64,000 nucleotides of DNA from Microbotryum violaceum. Lineage: Eukaryota. Positions within the stretch are counted from its first letter, which is position 1. Every line of letters starts with the position of its first letter. The position numbers were made by a program, and so were the translations under genes. The notes under the pieces were generated by a model. That model worked only from the letters and a program-made list of their open reading frames with translations, was not told the DNA's origin and did not search any database. The stretch spans positions 434,001 through 498,000 of the forward strand of contig CDLV01000010.1 in NCBI GenBank assembly GCA_001244265.2, written 5' to 3'. Shown here piece by piece: positions 1-39,186 of this stretch.

Positions 1-212
1 GGAGGGAGCAACCGTGGGTGGGGGGGACTTGAACTCGGATGTATCGGGTTGGTCTGTTCTGCTAGTTACAGCTCATCGAGCGGCGGTTGGGGTTATCGTC
101 GTGCATACTGGGCAGCATCTCCTTTAGTTCCGTAGGGGGTTTTCTCGTCTTGCAAATTAGCGATGAGTTCCATACCAAAAATAAATAAATAAAACATAAA
201 AAATAAATAAAA
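1..212 (+). mobile_element. 3' end of a diverged LINE subfamily (copy B) with A-rich tail; runs off the left edge
   Basis: Shares ordered motifs with the main element's 3' UTR (GGGAGCARCCG, ACTTGAA, GTATCGGRTTGGT, GGCGGTT, TTATCRTCGT, TTCCGTAGG). Ends CCATACC (170-176), followed by an A-rich tail at 177-212. Confidence 0.7.
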
Positions 213-780
213 TCCAGTTCTGCTTTCGTTGCTCATAGACCGGCTTGCGATTTGGGATTGACTCGACGGTGGCTCGCGCTCTTTGGCTTCGGGATTCTGA
301 GTCAAGGGAGGGATCAGCAGACACAGGCAGAAAGAGACAGTCGGCTTTGAGGGGCCAGGGACTGCTGAGGTGGAGGTTTTGGGGGGCCTCCACTGCGTCT
401 TGCTGTGAACGAGCATAGACTTGGGGCTTTGTGGGTCAGGGTAGTTGCTCAGTCGCTCTTCAGTCTTTGTCTCGACCGAGTTGGGAAGTGGGTGCGGGGT
501 GGGCCTCTTGTCGTTAGTAAATCGTTTGATTACTCTTTCTCTTTCTCTCTCTCTCTCCTCTCTCTCATTCGTCTCCAGGGGGGGAGCAGCCGCTTGGCTG
601 GGGCACTTGAATCCCAAGTATCGGATTGGTGGACACCGGCCCGTTTCTCGCATCTTGCGGGCGGTTTGTTTATCATCGTCGACTTCCATCGAGTTTTTCC
701 GTAGGCCAACTAGGGGGATCATGAACTGGGGGCAATATGATGGACAAGTTCTACCCCGCCCCCCCAAACAAAGGAAAAAA
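211..780 (+). mobile_element. 5'-truncated copy (A) of the main LINE, 3' UTR only
   Basis: Close reverse-complement match to 3348-3885. Ends GTTCTAC (748-754), then a decayed C/A-rich tail. Starts directly after copy B's tail. Confidence 0.88.
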
Positions 781-899
781 GGTTTCTGACAAACAAAAAG
801 GCCAACATGAACGAGCTTTAGTGTCGAGCCTGTCAGTGGGTGCACACGGCCGTCTGAGACCGAGGTAGTTGCTATACATTTGAGCTTGAGCGATTTGAG

Positions 900-2490
900 C
901 TTTGAGCCCTGCGCACTGGCCTTTGCGCATTGGGCGATCGGGCAATGGCCGGCCAGAGAGGATCGTTCCTCTACCGCCTCGGAAGATTCAGCGTCCATCT
1001 CATCGCCTCACACCTCGGGACCTGGCATCTCAGCGACTCGCAACCCACTACCTCATTATTCAGGTCGGGGTGAAATATACCGAAAATGCGGATTGGGAGG
1101 TGAAGTCTCGACCATCGCTCGCATACGCTCCATTCCGATGCTTGAAACCCCCATGCAGCCTAATGATAGTTCACCAACATCTATTGCTTCACAAATATTT
1201 TTTACTACAGTCAATTCCTTCTGTCTTCCAAGACCGTCGTCAGGGAAATCGGGAAAGCTGCCATGCTCGCCATTCGCGGTCAAGCTACGAATACCACTTA
1301 GAGACCCTCAAAGATCTCTCTCGGCCGCGCCGCCGCACGCCACCAGACCACGGTGGTTTCGGTTTGAGTGTTTTCCCTCGTCCCCCCCCCCTCCCCCGAT
1401 TGATCACGCCAAGCAAGTCTTTCAACTCTTCGACATTCGTCCAGTCGGCAAACCAACGCAACCACTTCACCATACGCAAACTGTCCTCCAACCAGCATTG
1501 TCGCTCTTGAATCTGGATCTGGGGGGCCTACTTTGCCACCCTCTACCTAATATAGGACCATACGGCGAAGAGGACGAGTGAACTGTTTTCTCAACGCTGG
1601 GTCCGCTACTTCGAAGCCTGGGCGTCGGTGGCAACACTGAACCCCCACCCCAAACTTTCCAAGGTCCAGAACCTCGAGGAACAGGCAAACCACGTGCTCT
1701 TCTTCCAGCGGGCCACGAAATTCACTCTCCGTGAACCCGACGTTCTTCCGAGGCCCTGACGGCGAGGTACAGCGATGACTCCGTCCTCGTTTGTGAACGC
1801 GTCCAAACGCCACCACGCCTGCCTGTACCCCTTGATTGTTCCTTAAGGACATCTCAAAAGAACTTCGATTCCCCGATCAATGCTGGAAGTCGTGGTGGAA
1901 GGCCTTGCGGAAGATTCGTAGAGTTCACTCGGATGTCAAAGATACCGCCAACTTCCACTCCCTGGAATCCCTCAAGCCAGGTCAACAACTCGTGTCCCCC
2001 AGCTACGCCCACGTCAATAATTCGGTCCACATACTGTGCGATGTGCTTAACCAACGCACCCGAGTTTCTGGCATACTTTCAGTCGGCTGCCCGCTCGCTT
2101 GGCGGTTTTGGATCGCTCTTCCTCCGGCCCCTCCCCCCGCCTTGCCCGTCTTCGTATGCCCGGTCGGCTCTCACTCGGAGCATCGACTGGTTGTTTCCAC
2201 TCGATCTGGAAGCTCTCTCGCCAGCGCCGATTCTCGTCGGAACCTTTGGAACCGATGACCGAAATGACTTTCGAGGATCTTCGAGCGTCTATCCTGATGT
2301 TCAAGGGTCGCCTCGTATCATTGTGACACCACCCGAGGGAATTTTTGTGTGCATGGTCGATTCTGTTACAACAAGGCCAACAAGTCCTACACTACTGGCG
2401 TGGCCGGTGTGCTTAAATGCACTCCTCCGGACTTTCCGAAGATATCTAGGCCTTCATACAATTATGCTGTTACAGGAACCTCTTAGGTAA
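900..2490 (+). mobile_element. Decayed 3' part of ORF2 from a second L1-like family
   Basis: Fragments in shifting frames but correct order: HYLIIQVGV (YLG-like RT motif), TNIYCFTNIFYYSQF, TPPDHGGFGL (GGLG-type motif), WKSWWKALRK, degenerate zinc finger CAMCLTNAPEFLAYF..VGCPLAWRFW. Boundaries approximate. Confidence 0.6.
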
Positions 2491-2808
2491 AGAAATCCAT
2501 GGCGGTTTCATATGGTCCGCTTCGAGTGTAGCGAAAAAGAAATCGCGGATTTATGGAGTATTGAGGTCTGAGTGAGAGTTTGGAGTATTTGTGTATTTGC
2601 TGGCAATTGGGTGATTACATTGGTGTTTGTTGAAGGGGAGGGTACCGCGGCTTGCTCGCGCGAGCGCGGTCGAACAGGAGGTGTCTGAAAGGCACAGATC
2701 GCTTCCGAGCCTGACTGATTCCGAGTCCAAACAGAAAGGATCAAACGGTGCAATCCGCAGGCGAAGAAAGACTACTAAAAGTACTTAGGTCAAGAGACGC
2801 CCGTGGCG

Positions 2809-3054
2809 CCGAGTGCGTCACAGAGCACGCCCCTTGCCGCGATCCAGACGTTCCGCGAGTCAACGCAACCGAAAAAGTAGTGGTCGGTGTCGTCCACCGG
2901 CGCTTCGCAGACGAGGTACGCGGGAGAAGTGTCGTGATTTTGTTGGTGTTGCAGCTTGTGCGTTGGGGTGAAGCGGAGAATCAACTTGAACCAAACTTCC
3001 CTCTCCCTCGCTGTCAGTGCCTTCGAGTTGACTGCCTTCCAGAAGCTCCTGAGG
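2809..3054 (-). mobile_element. Internal fragment of the main LINE ORF2 (C-terminal zinc-finger region)
   Basis: Near-identical to 4259-4503; encodes VCEAPVDDTDHYFFGC. Confidence 0.9.
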
Positions 3055-3055
3055 A

Positions 3056-3316
3056 TTTTTTATTTTTTTTGTAGAAAACGTTCATCGTATTGCCCCCAGT
3101 TCCTGTTCCCCCTGTTTTGGCCTACGGAAAAACTAGATGGAAGACTACGATGATAACACAAACCGCCCGCAAAAGTGCGAGAAACGAGCCAAGTCCACCA
3201 ATCCGAGATTCGGATTCAAATGCCCTAGCCAAGCGGTTGCTCCCCCCAGGAGACTAATGAGAGAGGGAACGAGAGATGAAGAGAAGAAAAGAAAGAAAAG
3301 AAATGTACTAACGACA
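3056..3316 (-). mobile_element. 5'-truncated LINE copy (C): last ~250 nt of 3' UTR plus poly(A)
   Basis: Diverged repeat of 3348-3596; T-tract 3056-3070 on + is the A-tail on -. Confidence 0.88.
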
Positions 3317-3994
3317 GAAGTAACTTTTTCTAAGGGTTTTTTTTTTTGTAGAACTTGTTCATCATATTGCCCCCAATTCCCGTTCCCCTGATTGGCCTAC
3401 GGAAAAGCTAGATGGAAGTCGACGATGATAACACAAACCGCCCGCAAGATGCGAGAAACGGGCCGGTGTCCACCAATCCGATACTTGGGATTCAAGTGCC
3501 CCAGCCAAGCGGTTGCTCCCCCCAGGAGACGAATGTGAGAGAGAAGGAGAGAGAGAGAGAAAGAGAAAAGAGTAACAAAACGATTTACTAACGACAAGAG
3601 GCCCACCCCGCACCCACTTCCCAACTCGGTCGAGACAAAGACAGGAGATCGACTGCGCAACTACCCTGACCCGCGAAGTCCTAAGTCTATGCTCGGTCAC
3701 AACAAGACGCGGTGGAGGCCCCTCAAAACCTCCACCTCAGCAGTCCCTGGCCCCTCAAAGCCGACTTTCTGCCTGTGTCTGCTGATCCCTCCCTTGACTC
3801 AGAACCCGAAGCCAAAGAGCGCGAGTCACCGTCGAGTCAATCTCAAATCACGAGCCGGTCCATGAGCAACAAAGGCAGACCTGTAATAGATGAAAGATGA
3901 AAGCAAGATATTTAGTATACAGTGTTTTGTTGGAAGATGAAGCGTGATGGTGTGTGTGTGTGGGGTGTGGTGGGGGGGAAATCGAACCCAGCCT

Positions 3995-6900
3995 CTACTG
4001 CCCTCGCCCGCCCCCTGCTCCTCCCGCCCTCAACTTCATCCTCTCCTCCAGTACCACCCTCCTCCTCTCCACGTTTTCCATCCTCGTCCCGTGCTTCTGT
4101 ATCCTCCATCTCCCACTGCTGATCATCTCCAAAACCATCCCCGGAAGATCTCGATTGTCCTCCCCGCCCCTTCCTGTTCGCTGAGCTTGGCCTTGAGCTT
4201 GGGGAGGCCAAAGAGCCGTTGCAGTGTCGTGTACCGGGCGTCCTCAATCGTGTCGCACCCGAGTGCGTCGCAGAGCACGCCCCTTGCCGCGATCCAGACA
4301 TTCCGCGAGTCAACGCAGCCGAAAAAGTAGTGGTCGGTGTCGTCCACCGGCGCTTCGCAGACGAGGCACGCGGAGAAGTGTCGTGATTCTGTTGGTGTTG
4401 CAGCTTGCGCGTCGGGGTGAAGCGGAGAATCAGCTTGAACCAAACTTCCCTCTCCCTCGCCGTCAGTGCCTTCGAGTTGACCGCCTTCCAAAAGCTCCTG
4501 AGGTCGTCCGGCTGCGGTGGTCCCTTGAGCCCGAGCGTGTTGGTAAAGGCCTTCGCGTTCAGGACCCGGCGGATGCGACGGATGGTGTACGGTCGAGCCA
4601 TGTTCAGCAGCTTGTACTGGCTCGCCTGCTGTGGAAGCACCGGGTCCGGAAGGCGCTGCTCCATTGCGAAGCGGGCCACGGGCTTGGGGAGAATCGCCTC
4701 GAGCGGTGCGCTGGTGCCGATCCGGGGAGGCACGTTGAGCCGTCCTGCCGCCACCGCCACCGCCAAGGGAGTGTTCTTGTGTCGATCGACAGTGAACCGG
4801 TACCAGGCCGCGATTGCCAGTCGCTGCGGGAGCCCGCGTCGATCGTACTCGCTGTTGTCGCCGAGCACATCCGCCGGCGGCGTCCAAAGGTGAAACCCCC
4901 CACCCGCATACAACTCGCGCCGGTAGAGATCCGCCACCTTCGGGTAGCCCTGGAGACGAAGGTAGTCAGGTATATGAACCGCGTCGATGGTCTGTCTCCC
5001 TCTGATGGGGGTGTGGAGGCTGCCGAGCAAGGTGGGAAGCGCGAGCAGGTTCGCGGTGGTCAAGGTCCTCGGGTTGACCTGCGCGTCTTGCTGTTTTGGA
5101 ACCCCAATGCCGCTCGCCATCGGGGATGGAGGTCGCTGGGGATGGGAGTGGATGGATGTGGCCAGAGATCGGTGGCCAGGTCGAGGTCGGACTGAGCTCG
5201 CTGGAGTGCCGCGCGCGCAAGTCCTTGCCAGATCGCGCCCGAACCGCCGAGAAGAACGTCCCAGATCCGTGCCGCAACCGCGTCCACGACGTCCCGCATC
5301 CTGATCACCCCGAGTCCCCCCTTGAGCTTGGCTGTGAACACGATATCTCTGCCGTAGCTGGTCCTGCCCTTGCCCCCACGGACGAAATCGACGAGCATGT
5401 CATCGAGCTTCTTGACGACTTCGGGCGGCGGGATGTCGGCTGCAAGGAAGTGCAGGATCTTGGGGATGGCGTACCGATTGACGTAAAAGGCACGGGTGTG
5501 GTGTGTGAGCCAGCGATGCTGAACCCCTTCCAGCGTCGCCTCGAGGCGTTCGATGAGATTCGCGTAGGCGAGTTCGGTGTCGCCGCTCGGGTCGAAGTGG
5601 AGGCCGATCCACTCGAGCGACTCGCCTGCGGCCTTGACGACGAGCGGGCGTTGCCCCGGGTCCCAGCGGCGTCCGATCGGTAGGACGACCGTCTTGTCCG
5701 TGTTGAGCCGGCCATTCGTTGCATGCCTCCAGTCGAGCGCCAGGTCATCGAGCAAGTTGAGTGACCCCAAGCCCGCGACGGCGACGACAACGTCATCGGC
5801 AAAAGCAAGCGATGTAATGGCGCGGCTCTGTGGGTACGGATGAAGTGCAGGTATGGAGAGATTCAGCGCGATGTTTCGACGGTGTAGAGCATCCAGAAAC
5901 GGCTGAAACACGATGTCCCAGACCGACGACGACGCCGGGTCCCCTTGGCCGAGCCCACACGTCAGTCGTACCGGCGCCGTCAAGAACCCATTGATGATGT
6001 AGCGGGCCGAGGTCGAGTCACCCGAGTAGAGCATCCTCAGCACGCGAAGAAAGGTGGCAGGAGCGCCCAGAGCGTCAAAGATGGCAAAGATCCAGTCATG
6101 CTCGACGAGGTCGTAGGCGGACGATTGGTCAAGAGATAAGGGTGCGGCCGCGGGGAACTCGGTCCTGCGCGCGCCAACTTCCTCGATCAGGAGACGAAGG
6201 TGTAGTGCAGCGTCAGCCAATCGGCGGTCCTTGACGAATCCGTGCTGCTGCGGCGGGAGGAGATCCGGTAGAATTTGGTTCAAACGGGCGACATAGACCT
6301 TGGTAAAGATCTTGTAATCGCACTCGCGCAGGGTGATCGGCCGGTACGACGAAAGTTCGGCGCGATCAGCATTCTTCTTGTGTCGCTTGAAGATGAGGCG
6401 CACGAGTCCTTGGCCCTGCTTGGGAGAGAGTGAGCCTCGCTCTATCATCGCGTTGTAGGCCTTGGTCAGCACCTTGGCCCACGCCTTGGGTGCGGTCTGG
6501 TAGAGTTCGTAGGGCACGCCCGACGGTCCCGGCGATCGCGGCCACGACCTCGTCCTCGGTGATTGGTCGCTGGAGTAAGTCGATCTGCGATTCCGAGAGT
6601 CGGCGCAGAAAGAGAGGATCCGAGCGCGGGTCGTCGCAAGTCCGCGCCGCCCTGATCGGCGCGAGGAATTCGTCCCGAAGTCGGTCGACGCGGTCCGGGT
6701 CACGAGGCTCGATGTGGTAGAGGCGCTGGAAATGCGCCTGCGTGTGGTCAAGAGCGACATCAATGTCATGCGTTAGCTCTCCGTTGCTCAAGCGCAGTGC
6801 TGTGATCTTGGAGTCCGAGTTCCGCGCCGCGAGCTTGGCGTGGACCGGCCGCGACAGTCGTTCCTCGGAGGCGATCTCGGGTACGTGGGCTCGGATCCGG

Positions 6901-7987
6901 AGTAGGCGCGCGCGCTCCTCGACCGCCCGCTTGAGTTCCTCGGACGTCCTTGTCCATTCTGCCGTTTCCGCCTCCCCCCATTCCGGTATCGCCTCCAGAT
7001 CCTGCACCCTCCCCACCAAATACTCCATCCGTTCCGTCCGCTCCCGATGCAACCTCCTCGCCATCTCCCCACCCCTATCCCTGCACGCCTTCAGAATGAC
7101 CTCGAGCTCCCCACCGGTTCCTCCCCGCTTGCCCCTTCCAACCATCCTTCCATCATCCGCTGGAATTCCACCGTCTTAAAGGTTGTGGTGTTGATTCGAT
7201 GTAGTTGGTTTGATGTGGTAGGTAGGCTGAGCTGTGGAGGGTCGCATCAGGATCGTCTGAGAGAGCCAGCACAATCAAGACCGGTCGGTGATCGGAAAGC
7301 TCCTTGGGATAGTCGTAGATCGTCGAGGCCTGATCGAGTCTTTTTTGGTGTGTCCGTTGCAGGAGAAAGTAGTCAAGCCGGGAGAAGGAGTTGGGTCGCT
7401 TGCGATTGGGATTAGGTCGAGTGAAGGATGGGGTGATGGGGTGTTTGTAGCGGATGCAGTCCGTGTAGGCCGAGTCGAGCTTGCCGATCAGGATTGGCCA
7501 GTGGTGGCCGCGCCGACTTTGGTTCCGCCGATCGACTTCTGGGCGCGGGCAGTCGTTGAGATCACCGCCAAGGAGTCAAAGGTGGGATTTCTGTGTTTTG
7601 TGAAATAAGAGTTTGTCAAAGAATTTCGCTCGTTGCTTTGGGTCAACGGGCGCGTAAACGTTGTTGATTTCTAGAATTTTGATGTCGCCCCGCAGACGAA
7701 AGGACGTGACGAGGAGCCGGCCGTCGAGTGCCGAGTGGGTGCGCAAGAGCTCGGCGTCGATCAGGGGGGAGTCAGCCGGAATTAGAGTCAGACAATGTTG
7801 GTTGATGAAGAGCTTGCCCTCGTACTCGTCCTTGATGAGTTGCCAGAGGTGCGGTCTGATGAAGTGCTCTTGTATGAGAATGGCCGATGCTTTGGAAAAG
7901 GAATAGGTAGTTGTAAATGTCACGTCGTTTCTCCGGGACCCCCATGCCCCTCCTCACGTTCCAGGTGATGATGGTGTGCTTAATCAT
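3995..7987 (-). pseudogene. LINE ORF2 (APE endonuclease - reverse transcriptase - CCHC finger), ~1330 codons, disrupted as assembled
   Basis: EN motifs ITWNVR, LIQEH, NVYAP, GGDLN, SRLDY, SDHRPV. RT motifs [44 protein letters not shown] (5792-5803), GGLG. Zinc finger CLVC..DHYFFGC. Several frameshifts and an in-frame TGA at 7576-7578. Confidence 0.92.
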
Positions 7988-10257
7988 TAATGGGTAGTTG
8001 AGGTCGAAGCGCTCTTGGCGGTGGTGACGTCCTCAAAGAGGGGAGGGCGGGCAGGACATCGTCCTCGGGCTCGTGGTCGGACCATCTTTTCTCCTCGGCT
8101 ACCCCTTTGCTTTCCCTCGGTCCACTTTCGTCACGCCAACCGGCATCGCCGCCGCCGCTGAAATCGACCTCGTCACCCTCCGCCCCTCTGTTCCATCCTT
8201 GACAACGACGCGGCTCTTCCCTTTGATGATCACTCGCTTGGCGTCGGTCGGTTCGTCACTAGGGTCACTGAGGTCCGCCGCAGTCTGCGACCTCTTCATT
8301 ACCGGCTTTTTGAACTTCGAAGCGGTCCCCCTGATATTGATGGAACGTATCTCACCGTCCTCATCCCACGTGGCAAAGTTGTGACGCACCAAAGGGGTTT
8401 CAGCGTCGAGCCTCCTCTCGATGCTTTGGTCCCGCTCGAGTCGTGCCTGCTCAACCCAGTTAGCTCTGATCCTGTCCCACTCCTCCCCTCGCGAAGCGAC
8501 TTGGCAAGAGTTTCGGGTGACAAAGGTGGGGTTGGTTCGTGGGGTGTCGATTCGCGGGAAGCGGTGGCGGCGGTTGCTGTTGCGTCGCTGTCGTCGTCAT
8601 TGTCCAGCCTGTTCGTCTCCCCTAAGTCCGTCGCTTCCGCGTTCTCCGCTTTCGTCGCTCCCCTGCCTCGTCCACATCGTCCACCTCCGTCGCCACCTCC
8701 TCTTCCTCCATCTCCGTCGCCACCTCCCTTTCCTCCATCTCCGTCGCCACCTTGCCTTCTGTTTCGCCCCTTCCATCCGCCATCACCTCATCCTCATCAA
8801 TCACCTCTCCATCGGATCCTCCGCAGTCCTCTAAAACCGACTCGTCCTCGCTCTTAAGTTTGATGACCTCCGTTTTCACGGTCGCCTCTGATTCCATCTC
8901 CGAGTCCTCCGAGTCCTCGTCATCCGCCTTATCACCAGCGTCCTCCTCCCCGATTCCTCTGGCCCCTGTCCGCTCTGGGCAGTTACCGCTTCCTCCTGTC
9001 CCTCCTCAACCTCGAGCCCGGCGAAGCGATTCTGTGATGCGATCCTGTTAAAAACCGGCACAGGAATGGGGCCTCGGCCTCCGCAATGTTGGTGTCGTTG
9101 GTGATGGTGTTCTTGTTGGCGTTGGTGTTGCCGTTGCCGTTGCCGTTGTGAGCCTCCTTTCGTTTGCTCTCCTGATCCAGTCCGCAGGTTCCCACGTGAC
9201 CAACGAAGTGGCACCTACCGCAAGCCGCCTCCTTCTCATAGTCATGGCGAAGGGCGGTGACCGGGATGCCTCGAGTGGGAAGGCCGATTCTCGAAGGTAG
9301 GATCTCTTTCAAGGTCGTGTTAGGGCGTTTGAACAGGGAGTCGTCATCGAAGTGTAGGAAAGCTGAGTAGTCTCCGGCAACGTGGGCAAAGGCCGAGGCG
9401 TTGTCCACGCTGATAATGCGCAGAACCTGCACAAGTTGGCACGAATGTCCCTTGCCTGACAAGTCCTGCACTAGTAATTGGAACGATTTGATGATGGCAT
9501 CCATGGAAGGCACTCCTTGAACACCGACGTTGATTCGAAGCTCGACCATGTTATGGTGGAACCTGTGAGATTTCGCGAAGCGGGCCTTCGCCGATCGCCA
9601 AGTGAGAGCAAGGGGCGTCGTAAGCGCAGCGTCACGTGCCTCGCCGGTGACGAACCCAACCGTAACGCGATGGTGAGCCGCCCCATTACGCAGGATTGAT
9701 GAATGTTGTACGCCTAGGATCTGTGGTCGATAGGCTGCAAGGTGGTCCGGCAGAGGAACTCCAGGCTCAAAGCAGATAGGAGAGATCGGCGATAACAGCC
9801 TCGTGACGCAGGCCACGAGATCGGTCTTGTCGGCATGAGACGCTCGCGAGGCGCTCTGGTGAGACAGAGTCACTTCAAGGGCGTAATCAAAGATGTTCTC
9901 GACAGACCGGTTCGCGTTCAAGGCCGAGAATTTCAGCGATGTGGCGGTGGCGACGGGGTAGAGTTCGGCGAAGTAGATGGCCTGGACCCAACGATCCATG
10001 CGGTTTCCGGGTACAGCACCCATGGCTTGTAGGAGGCTGCCCAAAGCCTTGGCACGCTGTTGTTGTTGTTGCTGTTGTTCAGGTGACTGAGTCGCCTGAC
10101 TCGCAGCGGCGGCATAGTTGGGTGCGGCGGTGGCGGGGCCCGTGACTTGCGTCTTCTTCGAGCTTATCGGGATCTGGTCGCGGGGTGACTGGACGCTGGT
10201 GGCGGACACCGGTGGTGGCGGTGCCGGCGGTGGGGACCCAGGGTCTCCTGTAGACAT
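7987..10257 (-). pseudogene. LINE ORF1 (nucleic-acid-binding, gag-like), ~750 codons after frameshift repair
   Basis: Lies upstream of ORF2. Pro/Gln-rich N-terminus, zinc knuckle [13 protein letters not shown], acidic region with VATEMEE repeats. ORF-track pieces 8983-10257, 8876-9214, 8622-8897, 8299-8523 and 8099-8392 join when one base is added at G4/C4 runs. Confidence 0.8.
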
Positions 10258-10313
10258 CTTGTCGGTGTATCACTTGTTAACTCGAGTATCGAAGACTGCG
10301 GTAGGGCGATTTC

Positions 10314-10438
10314 GAAGTGAAGTGAAGTGAAGTGAAGTGAAGTGAAGTGAAGTGAAGTGAAGTGAAGTGAAGTGAAGTGGGGTGAGGTGAGGTGAAGTGA
10401 AGTGAAGTGAAGTGAAGTGAAGTGAAGTGAAGTGAAGT
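10314..10438. repeat. (GAAGT)25 / (CTTCA)25 tandem pentamer array at the LINE 5' end
   Basis: 125 nt, 25 units, three variant units (GGGGT, GAGGT x2). Confidence 0.97.
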
Positions 10439-10539
10439 AGAGGGGGTTTTTTGTATGTTTTTTTTTTTTTTTGTATGGGTTGGGGCCCATAAACAATGAT
10501 GATATATATTCAAGCCCGGCCTCCTAACCATTGCTCGCT

Positions 10540-10655
10540 GCCCGGATGGTCTAGTGGTATGATTCGCCCTTAGGGAGTTAACAGTCTTGTGCCTTCTTGC
10601 GCTCTGGATGTATCTACTTTGGGCGAGGTCCCCGGTTCAATCCCGGGTTCGGGCC
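10540..10655 (+). tRNA. tRNA-Pro(AGG) with 44-nt intron (10576-10619)
   Basis: Acceptor GCCCGGA/TTCGGGC, D-arm TGGTCTAGTGGTATGAT, anticodon stem CGCCC/GGGCG with loop TT-AGG-G^T, T-arm CCCGG-TTCAATC-CCGGG, discriminator C, T-rich terminator ~10670-10677. Confidence 0.95.
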
Positions 10656-10923
10656 ATTGCCATGCCGTGTTTCTTTTGCTGCATTGAAGTCACAGTTTTT
10701 GCTTCGCCAATATATTTCTCATCCTGTTGGTTGTTTATGTATGCACATTACCGAATTACGCCATTCCACAGGGGGATCTCTTCACAGCTAAATCTAGCCG
10801 GGTTCGTCTGCTTCCGGACTTTCAAGGGCTACCAGAGCCTCCCTGGTCGCACGAAGAAGTCTACTTTTTATTGGAAAACCAAGGTATCATGGCACTAGCA
10901 CGTATGCTTGCGCAACGCACCCC

Positions 10924-12952: not shown

Positions 12953-13540
12953 CCTCGGGGGCTTCTTGCTTGCTCTGGCTCGGTCGATGAGTCCTGCGGA
13001 GCGAGCTTGAGCTCTAGGTCGCGGGGAGGCTGAAGCGAACTCCGAGAGCGCGGAGCCGCCGTGTGGGGTGGGAACCGGTAGTCGGGCCACTGTAATCGAA
13101 CGGCGCACGTTTAGTAGGAAACTGCGAGCCTTTACGATGAGGACGGGAAGCTGAAACGACAAGGTTCGTGTCGTGGAGGTGCGGATAGTCGACGGATGTG
13201 ACGCCGCGGCGAGGTTCCAGCTCGGAGTCCGGATTCAATTCGTCGGCCAAGTTGGCACAGAATCGAGGGCGGGACGACCCGAGGAGCCCGGCGCGCCACT
13301 TTCGACCCCAGTTTTCCTTGAGCAAACCTTCAGCTCTAAAGAGCTAAAAAGCTTCAGGGATTACTAATGTTGAGATTGTCATCAATTTCCCCAGCTCGCA
13401 CCCCCTCAATTTTCGTTGAACAAACCTTCAGCTCTAGAGAGCTTCAGGGATAAATGGCCCCTAAACGAGAAACAGGCTCAAAGACAAGACTACATATCCC
13501 GTTCCGCACAGCAGAGACGCACGGACTCGAACTCGGATTT

Positions 13541-18722: not shown

Positions 18723-19727
18723 TCATGTGATATCCAATCTTCTCCTCTCCGGAGATGCCACCAATTCGCTCGGACCACCTTTCATCAGCCCCTCCCCGGA
18801 CTCGTCCCAGAGCGCGCCCTCCGAACCCTGCTTCGCCTCCAAAGCAGCTGTTTGCACAAATTTGGGCCACCCTTTCCCAGCCCACCACTTTTCCGACCGT
18901 TCTCTAGTCCTTTCTTTAGTCTCACCAACACTGAGCCAATACTTGGCGGCGCGTTCCCTCATCTTCTCATCGCCGGTCATGACCTCGATCAAGTCGATGC
19001 CGAACTCGTTCGCGAGACCTCGTCCTTCCTTGAGCAACAACGATCGTCGGTAAACCAGGCGTTTGACGCCGCAGGTCAGGAGTAATGGGAAACAGGCGTA
19101 GCACGGTGGGAAGGTGATGTACGCGGTCGAACCTTGAAGGTTGATACCTCGGGAGGCGGCGACGGAGATGCACCGAGCTTCGGCATGGAGTTCGGTCTGT
19201 TTGCTTTGCAGAACGAGGTAGTGCTTGGACGAGCTAGCCAAGTGAGGGTCATTTTTTGTATTCCCGGGAGTATGCTCCATGGGTGAGGGCAAAGGGGTAT
19301 TGTTGGAGTGCACGAGGACGGAGCCAAGAAAGTCGAAAGACTTTGCGCCGAGCTTAGAGTCGGGATCCCATGGTCGGATGGATTGGTCGGTTGGAGGTGG
19401 CTTGACGAAGATGCAGGCCATTGATCCTCTTCTGGACATGGACAACCTCGAGTAGATCAAGGCGAGCGTCAAATAGTGCTCGTCGAGCGAGGTGCCGGGT
19501 TGGGAGAGGTCGGGAGTGTAAGACGGCAGGTGGTTCGTTTGGAAGTCGAAGCAGTTCGAGATCCATGACGAGCTCTGATTCCTTGTAGGGGTAGCAGCCA
19601 GTGCAGACGTTGAAGCCACTGAACGATCTGGATAAGCAACCGACAGTGTTAGCCCCGATTTCGTCTCCACCTGCCCCACATCCCACATCCCATGACCCCT
19701 TGACTCACCGACGTCATGCACGGCCAT
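18723..19727 (-). CDS. Cytidine/dCMP deaminase-family zinc-binding protein
   Basis: ELHAEARC..YITFPPCYAC..GVKRLVY (HxE/PCxxC). Probable short first exon MAVHDV, then a GTGAGT..CTAAC..CAG intron. Confidence 0.8.
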   Translation of the reverse strand: MAVHDVGESRGHGMWDVGQVETKSGLTLSVAYPDRSVASTSALAATPTRNQSSSWISNCFDFQTNHLPSYTPDLSQPGTSLDEHYLTLALIYSRLSMSRRGSMACIFVKPPPTDQSIRPWDPDSKLGAKSFDFLGSVLVHSNNTPLPSPMEHTPGNTKNDPHLASSSKHYLVLQSKQTELHAEARCISVAASRGINLQGSTAYITFPPCYACFPLLLTCGVKRLVYRRSLLLKEGRGLANEFGIDLIEVMTGDEKMRERAAKYWLSVGETKERTRERSEKWWAGKGWPKFVQTAALEAKQGSEGALWDESGEGLMKGGPSELVASPERRRLDIT

Positions 19728-20057
19728 CCTGGGCGAAGTAGTGTTTATCACGCCCTCACGAACGCCTTGAGTGCAGCCGATGGTGCTCTGGGTTATCGCT
19801 ACTGTCACCGAGTAAGCATTCGAAGGGGAATGCAGGTGGAAGGAGGCCGAGCATGAGCTCCGCAGCGCTTCGACACGGCTCCGTTGCAAGCTCGCGCCCG
19901 GACACTTGCAGACACTCGCACGGACTCTCGCAGACACCTGCACTCTCTTGCACTACACTTGCTTGCACGCGGTGACGTGACGCGACTAGACGCGGACGCG
20001 ACCTGTCGCCTTCCTTCACTTCTGCACCCACACCCACCATAGACTAAACCCCCCACC

Positions 20058-26088: not shown

Positions 26089-26628
26089 CGTGGGAGTCGA
26101 GTCAAAATACGGCCGTGGACTTGACCGAGTTCGATTTCGTCAGTTGTCAGGTGTACAGGCTGAGCGGGGTTGCCCAGTCGCCATATCCCCCGCATTCAAG
26201 GTCCAGGCTCTGGAATTGGCCCGATTACTAATGCAAGGCGTGGGGATGGCACGAGATTAAGTTAATGAAATCTATTAGATAAAAAAAAAAAAAAAAGCGA
26301 GGCCCGAATGTATTTCCCACAGCGTCAGTCGATGGCACGCCAAAGTGATCTAGGGTAGAGCTTAGATTAGGAACGTAATCCAAGGGAAGACTTATTGCTC
26401 TCCATCAAAAGCCACACCGGCCTTTCCGCAGAACATATGACGGTGACTTTATTCGCGCCGCGGATGGCTTGTCTCGACGAGTCGCGCGCTGGGCTGGGCT
26501 GGGCTGGGCTTCAGCTGGCTTCAGGGCATCGAGGCGCTGCAGCGGGAGGCACGGTTAGCCCAGCTCCTTTGCCATCAACTTCACTCATTGGACTCCGCTT
26601 CACCCTCTTGGTAACGAAGCGACACGGC

Positions 26629-38833: not shown

Positions 38834-39186
38834 TATTAGATCCGCGCACATTGGCCGTATTTTTATCATTAATCGCGTAACATCCGCGCGCATCTATACC
38901 AACTTTCTTCCTCAACTTATTCCTTATCATCTTCCCTCGTCTTGTCGTGTGCCCTTATTTTTTTTGCAAAATTACATCAGTGGTTCAAAAAAAAAAAAGC
39001 GAGGGATAATGCAGTGCGAGACTAGGGGGTACGACGAAAGAAGTGGTGCGAGAGAATGTGAACAAGATGGCCTCGGAAGCAGAAACAGGAAACGAGCGCT
39101 CATGGGGAATCAAGTGAAGCAGATGATGCAAGAGGGAAGGTGTTCAAGGCGCACAGCGCCGATGACGATGGTGCACTGCCAGATGC

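Follow-up and report, generated by a model that had tools for sequence, protein, structure and literature searches.

The human long interspersed nuclear element (LINE) LINE-1, or L1, inserts at A-rich tracts and is marked by 5′ truncation, target duplications that start with A, and transduction of flanking DNA. Zorro3 of Candida albicans, a member of the L1 superfamily, likewise integrates into poly(A) or A-rich tracts and has poly(A) on both flanks (PMC7175516). L1-clade elements also occur in Microbotryum violaceum (PMC3956500, citing Hood 2005). TRE5, a retrotransposon without long terminal repeats (non-LTR), inserts 40-54 bp upstream of tRNA genes; the product of its first open reading frame (ORF1) binds TFIIIB, and an upstream tRNA gene enhances its promoter (PMC5911963). 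The corresponding range for NLTR-B is 39-64 bp, and Ty1, Ty3 and other LTR elements also use tRNA 5′ flanks as safe sites; in the table of this 2018 review, tRNA-targeted non-LTR retrotransposons are listed only for dictyostelid amoebae (PMC5911963). Here we describe a 64,000-nucleotide stretch of contig CDLV01000010.1 (the window), in which an L1-type LINE lies head to head with a tRNA-Pro(AGG) gene, its 5′ end (10443) being 97 bp from tRNA position +1. A relative of this LINE at a second locus looks like it carries the trace of another tRNA flank, and we weigh whether the family has a preference for such sites.

By its predicted organization, ORF1 followed by an apurinic/apyrimidinic endonuclease (APE), a reverse transcriptase (RT), a Cys-rich tail and a poly(A) end, the element is an APE-type non-LTR retrotransposon of the L1 type (Table 1). 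Pfam identifies the endonuclease (Exo_endo_phos, E 6e-06 in 7153-7575 on the minus strand), which lies N-terminal to the RT (RVT_1, E 1.8e-21); a zf-RVT match near the 3′ end is weak (E 0.0085, below the cut-off). No Pfam family was found for the remaining five of the eight LINE pieces, and none was detected for ORF1, in whose translation a CX2CX4HX3C motif is seen. Other hallmarks of LINEs are present as well: there are no LTRs, copies end in an A-tail (A11 in the full copy, A-rich in the truncated copy E1, A10 in the copy on metagenome contig L001, described below), and 5′-truncated copies occur (P1 and E1, which consist of 3′ untranslated region (UTR) only). A search of PDB with the RT piece placed R2 proteins (E 3e-17) slightly ahead of L1 ORF2p (E ~3e-15 to 1e-14), and the clade therefore cannot be assigned by sequence search alone. 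With the APE piece or ORF1 as the query, PDB gave no usable match. The RT piece matches gene models of M. silenes-dioicae at 99% identity and those of M. saponariae and M. intermedium at 85-96%, and judged by these matches the host is a Microbotryum (anther-smut) species. The L1-clade elements described from M. violaceum and the present LINE very likely form one family or sister families.

The tRNA-Pro(AGG) gene is the sole tRNA that intron-aware ARAGORN calls in the 64 kb at default stringency, and a T-run terminator follows it at ~10671-10678. Default ARAGORN and Rfam at the gathering threshold each made no call in the window because of the 44-nt intron, and these misses are therefore not evidence of absence. 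In read-derived contigs, the single-copy flank begins at 10626, 30 nt short of the tRNA end, in three of four sequencing runs, as expected where a tRNA exon is multi-copy. Relaxed ARAGORN (-ps90) added four "tRNAs" in the window, within the LINE and coding genes, and four on L001; all have non-canonical arms and were rejected as false positives. An earlier sequence-only reading of the window had proposed an L1-like element in minus orientation with its 5′ end facing the tRNA, and a block of transposon-derived sequence that stops 60-100 bp upstream of the only tRNA gene. Both proposals are borne out: APE and RT are identified by Pfam, the 5′ end lies 97 bp from the tRNA, and neither LINE similarity (tblastx of the element against 10501-64000) nor, in 20 long ORFs, a transposable element (TE) domain was found to the right of the tRNA.

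A metagenome scan revealed one further locus with a relative of this LINE, the 12,388 bp contig L001; no other copies were found in viral contigs (protein and 3′-UTR pattern searches) or in genome contigs (profile and pattern searches). Identity between the L001 copy and the window LINE is 77% in the 5′ 4.3 kb and 90% in the 3′ 1.9 kb, and there is a deletion of ~0.9 kb. The split between a 77% portion (leader, ORF1 and APE) and a 90% portion suggests mosaic subfamilies with swapped 5′ modules. ORF1 of L001 is open for 806 codons, and its Exo_endo_phos match (E 3.5e-05, Pfam) falls just under the curated cut-off. This LINE and a 5′ extension form a unit inserted in a Copia gag gene of the opposite strand; beyond the insertion, the Retrotran_gag_2 match resumes at profile position 64 and is followed by integrase domains. 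The ~100 nt between gag and the 5′ repeat of L001 are neither gag nor common to the window leader. They contain a spacer of 62 nt at 2818-2879 and a tRNA-like 29-mer that reads on the opposite strand, divergent from the LINE as the tRNA is in the window.

The 29-mer aligns with positions 1-29 of the window tRNA at a score reached by none of 2000 shuffles, and local alignment of the two spacer-plus-tRNA regions gives a score reached by none of 1000. The 29-mer contains an exact 12-mer of the window tRNA A-box/D-loop, which, at ≤1 mismatch, occurs once in the 64 kb and once in the 12.4 kb of L001. There is no homology between the two 62-nt spacers, their alignment score being reached by 426 of 2000 shuffles, and the acceptor arms of the L001 fragment and the window tRNA differ at four of seven positions, mostly by transversions. 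Because the spacers are unrelated and the acceptor arms differ, the L001 source is read as a different tRNA locus with like orientation and spacing. tRNAs that start with U are typically of the Glu or Asp type, and the L001 fragment may derive from such a tRNA. The simplest reading is that the extension would be a 5′ transduction, in which the source copy lay 62 nt upstream of another tRNA gene and its transcript began inside that gene. As such, the extension looks like the trace of a second, independent tRNA-flanking source copy. Four other origins were considered and rejected. Template switching of the RT onto a tRNA would give the sense orientation and no genomic spacer; twin priming is at odds with the absence of the 12-mer elsewhere in the LINE; a gag origin is at odds with the stops present and with the continuation of the gag profile across the insertion; and the window locus is not the source, given the non-homologous spacers.

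The locus can be compared with described systems on several points. Like TRE5-A of Dictyostelium, the Microbotryum LINE has ORF1 and an ORF2 with APE, RT and a zinc-finger region, ends in an oligo(A) tail, and lies tens of bp upstream of a tRNA gene in opposite transcriptional orientation, with repeated hits at one tRNA. Differences from TRE5-A are the position of its 5′ end at −97, a distance made up of native spacer (62 nt) and A-tracts, the location of at least one copy (L001) far from any tRNA, and its basidiomycete host. Like Zorro3, it is a fungal L1-type LINE whose copies insert at A-rich tracts and have A tracts on either side. No preference for chromosomal sites or tRNA genes is known for Zorro3. 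The Microbotryum LINE further has a long 5′ leader with a pentanucleotide array, and its L001 target is not an A tract. The APE- and RT-containing ORF2 and the 5′ truncation are shared with human LINE-1, and the candidate target duplication that starts with A and the proposed transduction of flanking DNA would be further common features; the RT piece scores slightly better with R2 than with L1, and ORF1 has no detectable Pfam family. Ty1 and Ty3 differ in being integrase-based rather than relying on target-primed reverse transcription. The L1-clade elements of M. violaceum share host genus and broad element type, and the account of them in PMC3956500 makes no mention of a target-site preference in the portion that deals with them. 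In outcome the present element resembles TRE5 (upstream, divergent, tens of bp), and in its nick-site habit Zorro3 and L1.

We regard a real but non-exclusive, TRE5-like preference of this LINE for tRNA 5′ flanks as a serious possibility that falls just short of an even chance. The case for it is that two seemingly unrelated tRNA loci would share orientation and a native spacing of 62 nt. Orientation is divergent, LINE 5′ end to tRNA 5′ end, in both the window and the L001 extension (n = 2). L001 has a 62-nt spacer, and the window a native spacer of equal length followed by 34 nt of A-tract material (10444-10477), which puts the 5′ end at −97, and it is by parsing these 34 bp as duplications that a 62-nt native spacer is left. 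Two 5′-complete copies are readable, one of them at a tRNA and the other off-tRNA but bearing the tRNA flank of its source. The full-length copy, which stands closest to the tRNA, is also the newest: it is near consensus (RT 99% identical to other copies), versus 84% for E1. The chance of a divergent tRNA within 100 bp of a LINE 5′ end is roughly 5e-4, taking 134 tRNA genes (PMC4469406) and a genome of ~25 Mb from sequencing-run sizes. Targeting of tRNA genes has evolved repeatedly in compact genomes (PMC5006619; PMC5911963), which gives the preference prior plausibility.

A fuller proposal is tentative, and we would sooner doubt it than rely on it: a fungal L1-type LINE may have convergently evolved TRE5-like, position-specific integration at ~63 bp on the 5′ side of tRNA genes, its own 5′ end facing the gene, and may also use the open chromatin of the tRNA gene for transcription, some transcripts starting within that gene, on its opposite strand, and taking tRNA-flank sequence to new sites. 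In the non-exclusive reading given above, the preferred zone would lie ~60-100 bp upstream of tRNA genes, with the LINE 5′ end facing the tRNA. Upstream of tRNA-Pro this zone would have been hit repeatedly, by E2, then by E1, possibly by an aborted A-only event, and last by the full-length copy, each new hit pushing earlier copies outward. Transcription of a tRNA-adjacent copy could begin within the neighboring tRNA gene, on its opposite strand, in which case daughter copies would take the spacer and ~29 nt from the start of the tRNA with them by 5′ transduction; L001 would be an example. The bias could arise by tethering to TFIIIB/TFIIIC or through accessible T-rich DNA upstream of RNA polymerase III (Pol III) genes.

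Table 1. Features at the left end of the window, with positions in the window
Feature	Position	Strand	Evidence and remarks
3′ end of another retroelement-like repeat of very high copy number, interrupted by the window edge	1-212	+	(AAAT)n tail 179-211 (TRF)
P1, 5′-truncated LINE copy, 3′ UTR only	215-754	+	blastn 91.2% over 545 nt, to 3883-3348; degenerate A-rich tail 755-780
Unclassified sequence between the arrays, partly repeated elsewhere in the genome	781-2808		single-copy-depth contigs over 642-1626 and 1787-2743; extra summed depth from look-alikes
E2, internal LINE fragment without 3′ end	2809-3054	-	blastn 95.1% over 246 nt; equivalent to 4259-4503 of the full copy
E1, 5′-truncated diverged LINE copy, 3′ UTR	3060-3316	-	blastn 84.5% over 264 nt; A-tail 3060-3070; start 3316
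Candidate 9-bp target-site duplication, left copy	3334-3342		GGGTTTTTT on +; exact string
Full-length LINE, 7.1 kb	3337-10443	-	A-tail 3337-3347 (A run; T11 on +); 3′ UTR to ~3911; zf-RVT-like region in 4123-4965; RT 5060-6772; APE 7153-7953; ORF1 start 10257; 5′ leader with (GAAGT)25 at 10314-10438 (TRF)
Candidate 9-bp target-site duplication, right copy	10444-10452		GGGTTTTTT; exact string
GTATG-T15-GTATG	10453-10477	+ (reading)	with next T6 can be read as an insert of A's only between the copies of an 11-bp duplication
Native spacer, 62 nt, 5′ of tRNA-Pro	10478-10539		TATA-like run at 10503-10509; ~single-copy depth (rough arithmetic on read-derived contigs)
tRNA-Pro(AGG)	10540-10655	+	intron-aware ARAGORN; canonical cloverleaf; intron 44 nt at 10576-10619, after position 36

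Several observations weigh against a tRNA preference. The window locus was picked because of its tRNA adjacency, and only two tRNA-linked 5′ ends are available. The 5′ end in the window, at −97, lies beyond the ranges of TRE5 (40-54) and NLTR-B (39-64), and the figure of 62 nt there rests on a chosen parsing of the A-tracts. The L001 copy is itself off-tRNA, no tRNA being called on that contig at default stringency, and Rfam gave no tRNA match to the L001 extension at E ≤ 10, the piece being only ~29 nt long. The sequence-only reading had supposed that older copies are pushed outward from the tRNA; the near-consensus copy does stand nearest the tRNA, but E2 (95%) lies outside E1 (84%), and there is no simple gradient of age. 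The LINE family comprises 101 long gene models at E ≤ 1e-3, several contigs having three to six of them, and the fusion of ten of the 101 to LTR-retrotransposon domains suggests that it accumulates in TE-rich regions. Moreover, the family uses target-primed reverse transcription, with nicks made at A/T-rich tracts, and this habit alone can build head-to-tail stacks without any tRNA.

That last point is the core of an alternative that we hold to be a live possibility, if a rather doubtful one, namely that the element targets only A tracts, as L1 and Zorro3 do, with an incidental tRNA that has a T-rich tract upstream. Earlier poly(A) tails would be the best targets, and purifying selection would leave copies in gene-poor spots. 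The junctions provide much of the evidence for it. The candidate GGGTTTTTT duplication reads A6-CCC on the element strand and flanks the full copy on both sides; it is plausible as the target duplication of that copy, although six of its nine bases are homopolymer and adjoin the tail. Outward from the tRNA, the element strand presents the 62-nt spacer, CATAC-A15-CATAC-A6-CCC and the LINE, followed past the tail by CCC, 17 nt and E1. The segment CATAC-A15-CATAC-A6 is possibly an 11-bp duplication around nine extra A's, as an aborted, tail-only insertion might leave. The start of E2 directly abuts the A-tail of E1, and that of P1 directly abuts the (AAAT)n tail of the other repeat; the position of P1 behind another element's tail, which also tells against a tRNA preference, is what plain A-tract targeting predicts. 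A-tract flanks or insertion into pre-existing A tracts are thus found for the full copy, P1 and E2 but not for L001, E1 being ambiguous. No target-site duplication is evident for E1 or L001 on junction inspection. Three of the six A/T runs of at least 8 in the window are in or beside the LINE stack (two LINE tails and one T15 tract). The precedent of Zorro3 (PMC7175516), the landing of L001 far from any tRNA, and the nesting of many family gene models with LTR elements point the same way.

Targeting of A tracts alone leaves other observations unaccounted for. The tRNA fragment fused to the 5′ end of the L001 LINE, with its 62-nt spacer, would require either a chance event of ~5e-4 per copy or a tRNA-adjacent master copy. 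The L001 target is not an A tract, and the full copy did not enter a pre-existing tail, lying 17 nt upstream of the E1 5′ end. There are 23 A/T runs of at least 6 in the window, including A16 at 26281 and A12 at 38987 in its gene-rich part, and tblastx detected no LINE piece at the long A16, T8 and A12 runs at 26281-26296 and 38958-38998. Such empty runs in gene-rich DNA are mildly unexpected if poly(A) tracts were the sole target, and they count in favor of guidance by tRNA genes.

It is unlikely that the arrangement instead reflects retention at a boundary, in which the block would be the edge of a larger region (a centromere or mating-type region, for instance) that is rich in repeats, low in recombination or heterochromatic, and the tRNA would mark or enforce the border with no targeting involved. 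tRNA genes of fission yeast act as chromatin barriers. The repeat block includes three or more repeat families and extends past the left end of the window, and gene-dense housekeeping DNA begins directly to the right of the tRNA, where Pfam assigned housekeeping families to 9 of the 20 long ORFs tested, no family to 11 and a TE domain to none. Family gene models also cluster on some contigs. Neither a fixed orientation nor a spacing of tens of bp follows from a boundary, however, and nor does the tRNA fragment on L001; no marker of a centromere or of a mating-type region was noticed in the window. The weakest alternative, that the tRNA-Pro gene is cargo brought in with the element by an old 5′ transduction, is highly improbable: L001 shows that spacer and tRNA sequence can travel with a LINE, but the candidate 9-bp duplication brackets the LINE at 10444 and leaves the spacer and tRNA outside, the tRNA is complete with intron and terminator, the spacer appears to be at roughly single-copy depth versus 12-30x for the LINE (rough arithmetic), and the spacers of the window and L001 are unrelated. 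Should a tRNA preference not be real, the locus would amount to an ordinary cluster of nested LINEs where a repeat block ends.

Truncated copies in the window were located by blastn against the full-length LINE, and unrelated stretches were checked by tblastx against it. The sequence-only reading had described two truncated minus-strand copies and a converging plus-strand array of three pieces. Both minus-strand copies are real by blastn, but 2809-3054 is an internal fragment rather than a simple 5′-truncated copy. The plus-strand array is reduced to one member, the piece at 211-780 that contains P1; 1-212 belongs to another element, and 900-2490 is unrelated to the LINE by tblastx and has no Pfam family. 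The 1-212 repeat has no similarity to the LINE in blastn or tblastx, and its contig depth at 71-113 is ~180 times that of single-copy flank in run X1, far above that of the LINE. It could be SINE-like (short interspersed nuclear element) or the 3′ end of another LINE; the published annotation of M. lychnidis-dioicae gives 0 SINEs (PMC4469406). For 781-2808, tblastx found no similarity to the LINE and Rfam no match at E ≤ 1, and none of the eight ORFs in 1-2800 has a Pfam family at E ≤ 1.

Contigs over the 5′ half of the LINE have a k-mer depth of ~12-30 times that of single-copy flank (four runs, three organisms), depth not being equal to copy number. The family looks young and recently active, its copies being 99% alike and, from depth, numbering roughly 12-30 per genome. 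Nesting of LINE and LTR elements is, as read from the fused gene models, common in Microbotryum genomes. Among the contigs listed for the four runs, which break at the microsatellite and the tRNA, none joins the LINE 5′ end to any flank or shows an empty-site joint across 3337-10443. The leader array comprises 25 pentamer units in the window (10314-10438) versus ~5 hexamer-like units in L001 (2880-2906); it is unstable, and short-read contigs break there. The Copia-type element split by the L001 LINE lies at 259-2781 and 9009-9368, both on the minus strand, and has gag, pre-integrase, integrase and SH3-like domains.

The reading frame of the window LINE is interrupted several times. Read-derived contigs show single-base gain or loss relative to the window at eight coding breaks (9067, 8947, 8659, 8484, 7894, 7235, 7108 and 4371). 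Every mapped contig differs from the window at six of the eight, and C4 or G4 runs account for five of these sites overall; the frameshifts may in part be homopolymer assembly errors rather than decay. An in-frame stop at 7576-7578 splits the APE region, and all mapped contigs have G instead of A at 7578, which gives a sense codon. This stop is either a private nonsense change of the window copy or an assembly error.

Two further observations concern the gene-rich flank. At 13360-13451, a short repeated or tandem stretch shows a ~5-fold increase in depth and "goes back 40" joints in two runs. The ORF at 18723-19952 on the minus strand matches a cytidine/deoxycytidylate deaminase zinc-binding domain (E 3.6e-08), with a weak match to MafB19-like deaminases, and its predicted product is probably an ordinary housekeeping deaminase. 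C-to-T hypermutation is said to mark TEs of Microbotryum.

Our search of the open-access full-text literature found no report of tRNA-targeted non-LTR elements in fungi or in Microbotryum. If the tRNA preference is true, this LINE would be, as far as that search shows, the first tRNA-targeted non-LTR element outside the dictyostelids. Target-primed reverse transcription directed to Pol III genes would then have arisen independently in a compact genome, which would support the "safe haven" idea of convergent evolution. Because the LINE family looks recently active, the question can be tested with public Microbotryum assemblies and population resequencing. The family would then offer a second, genetically tractable system for studying how an endonuclease-based element reads the Pol III transcription complex.

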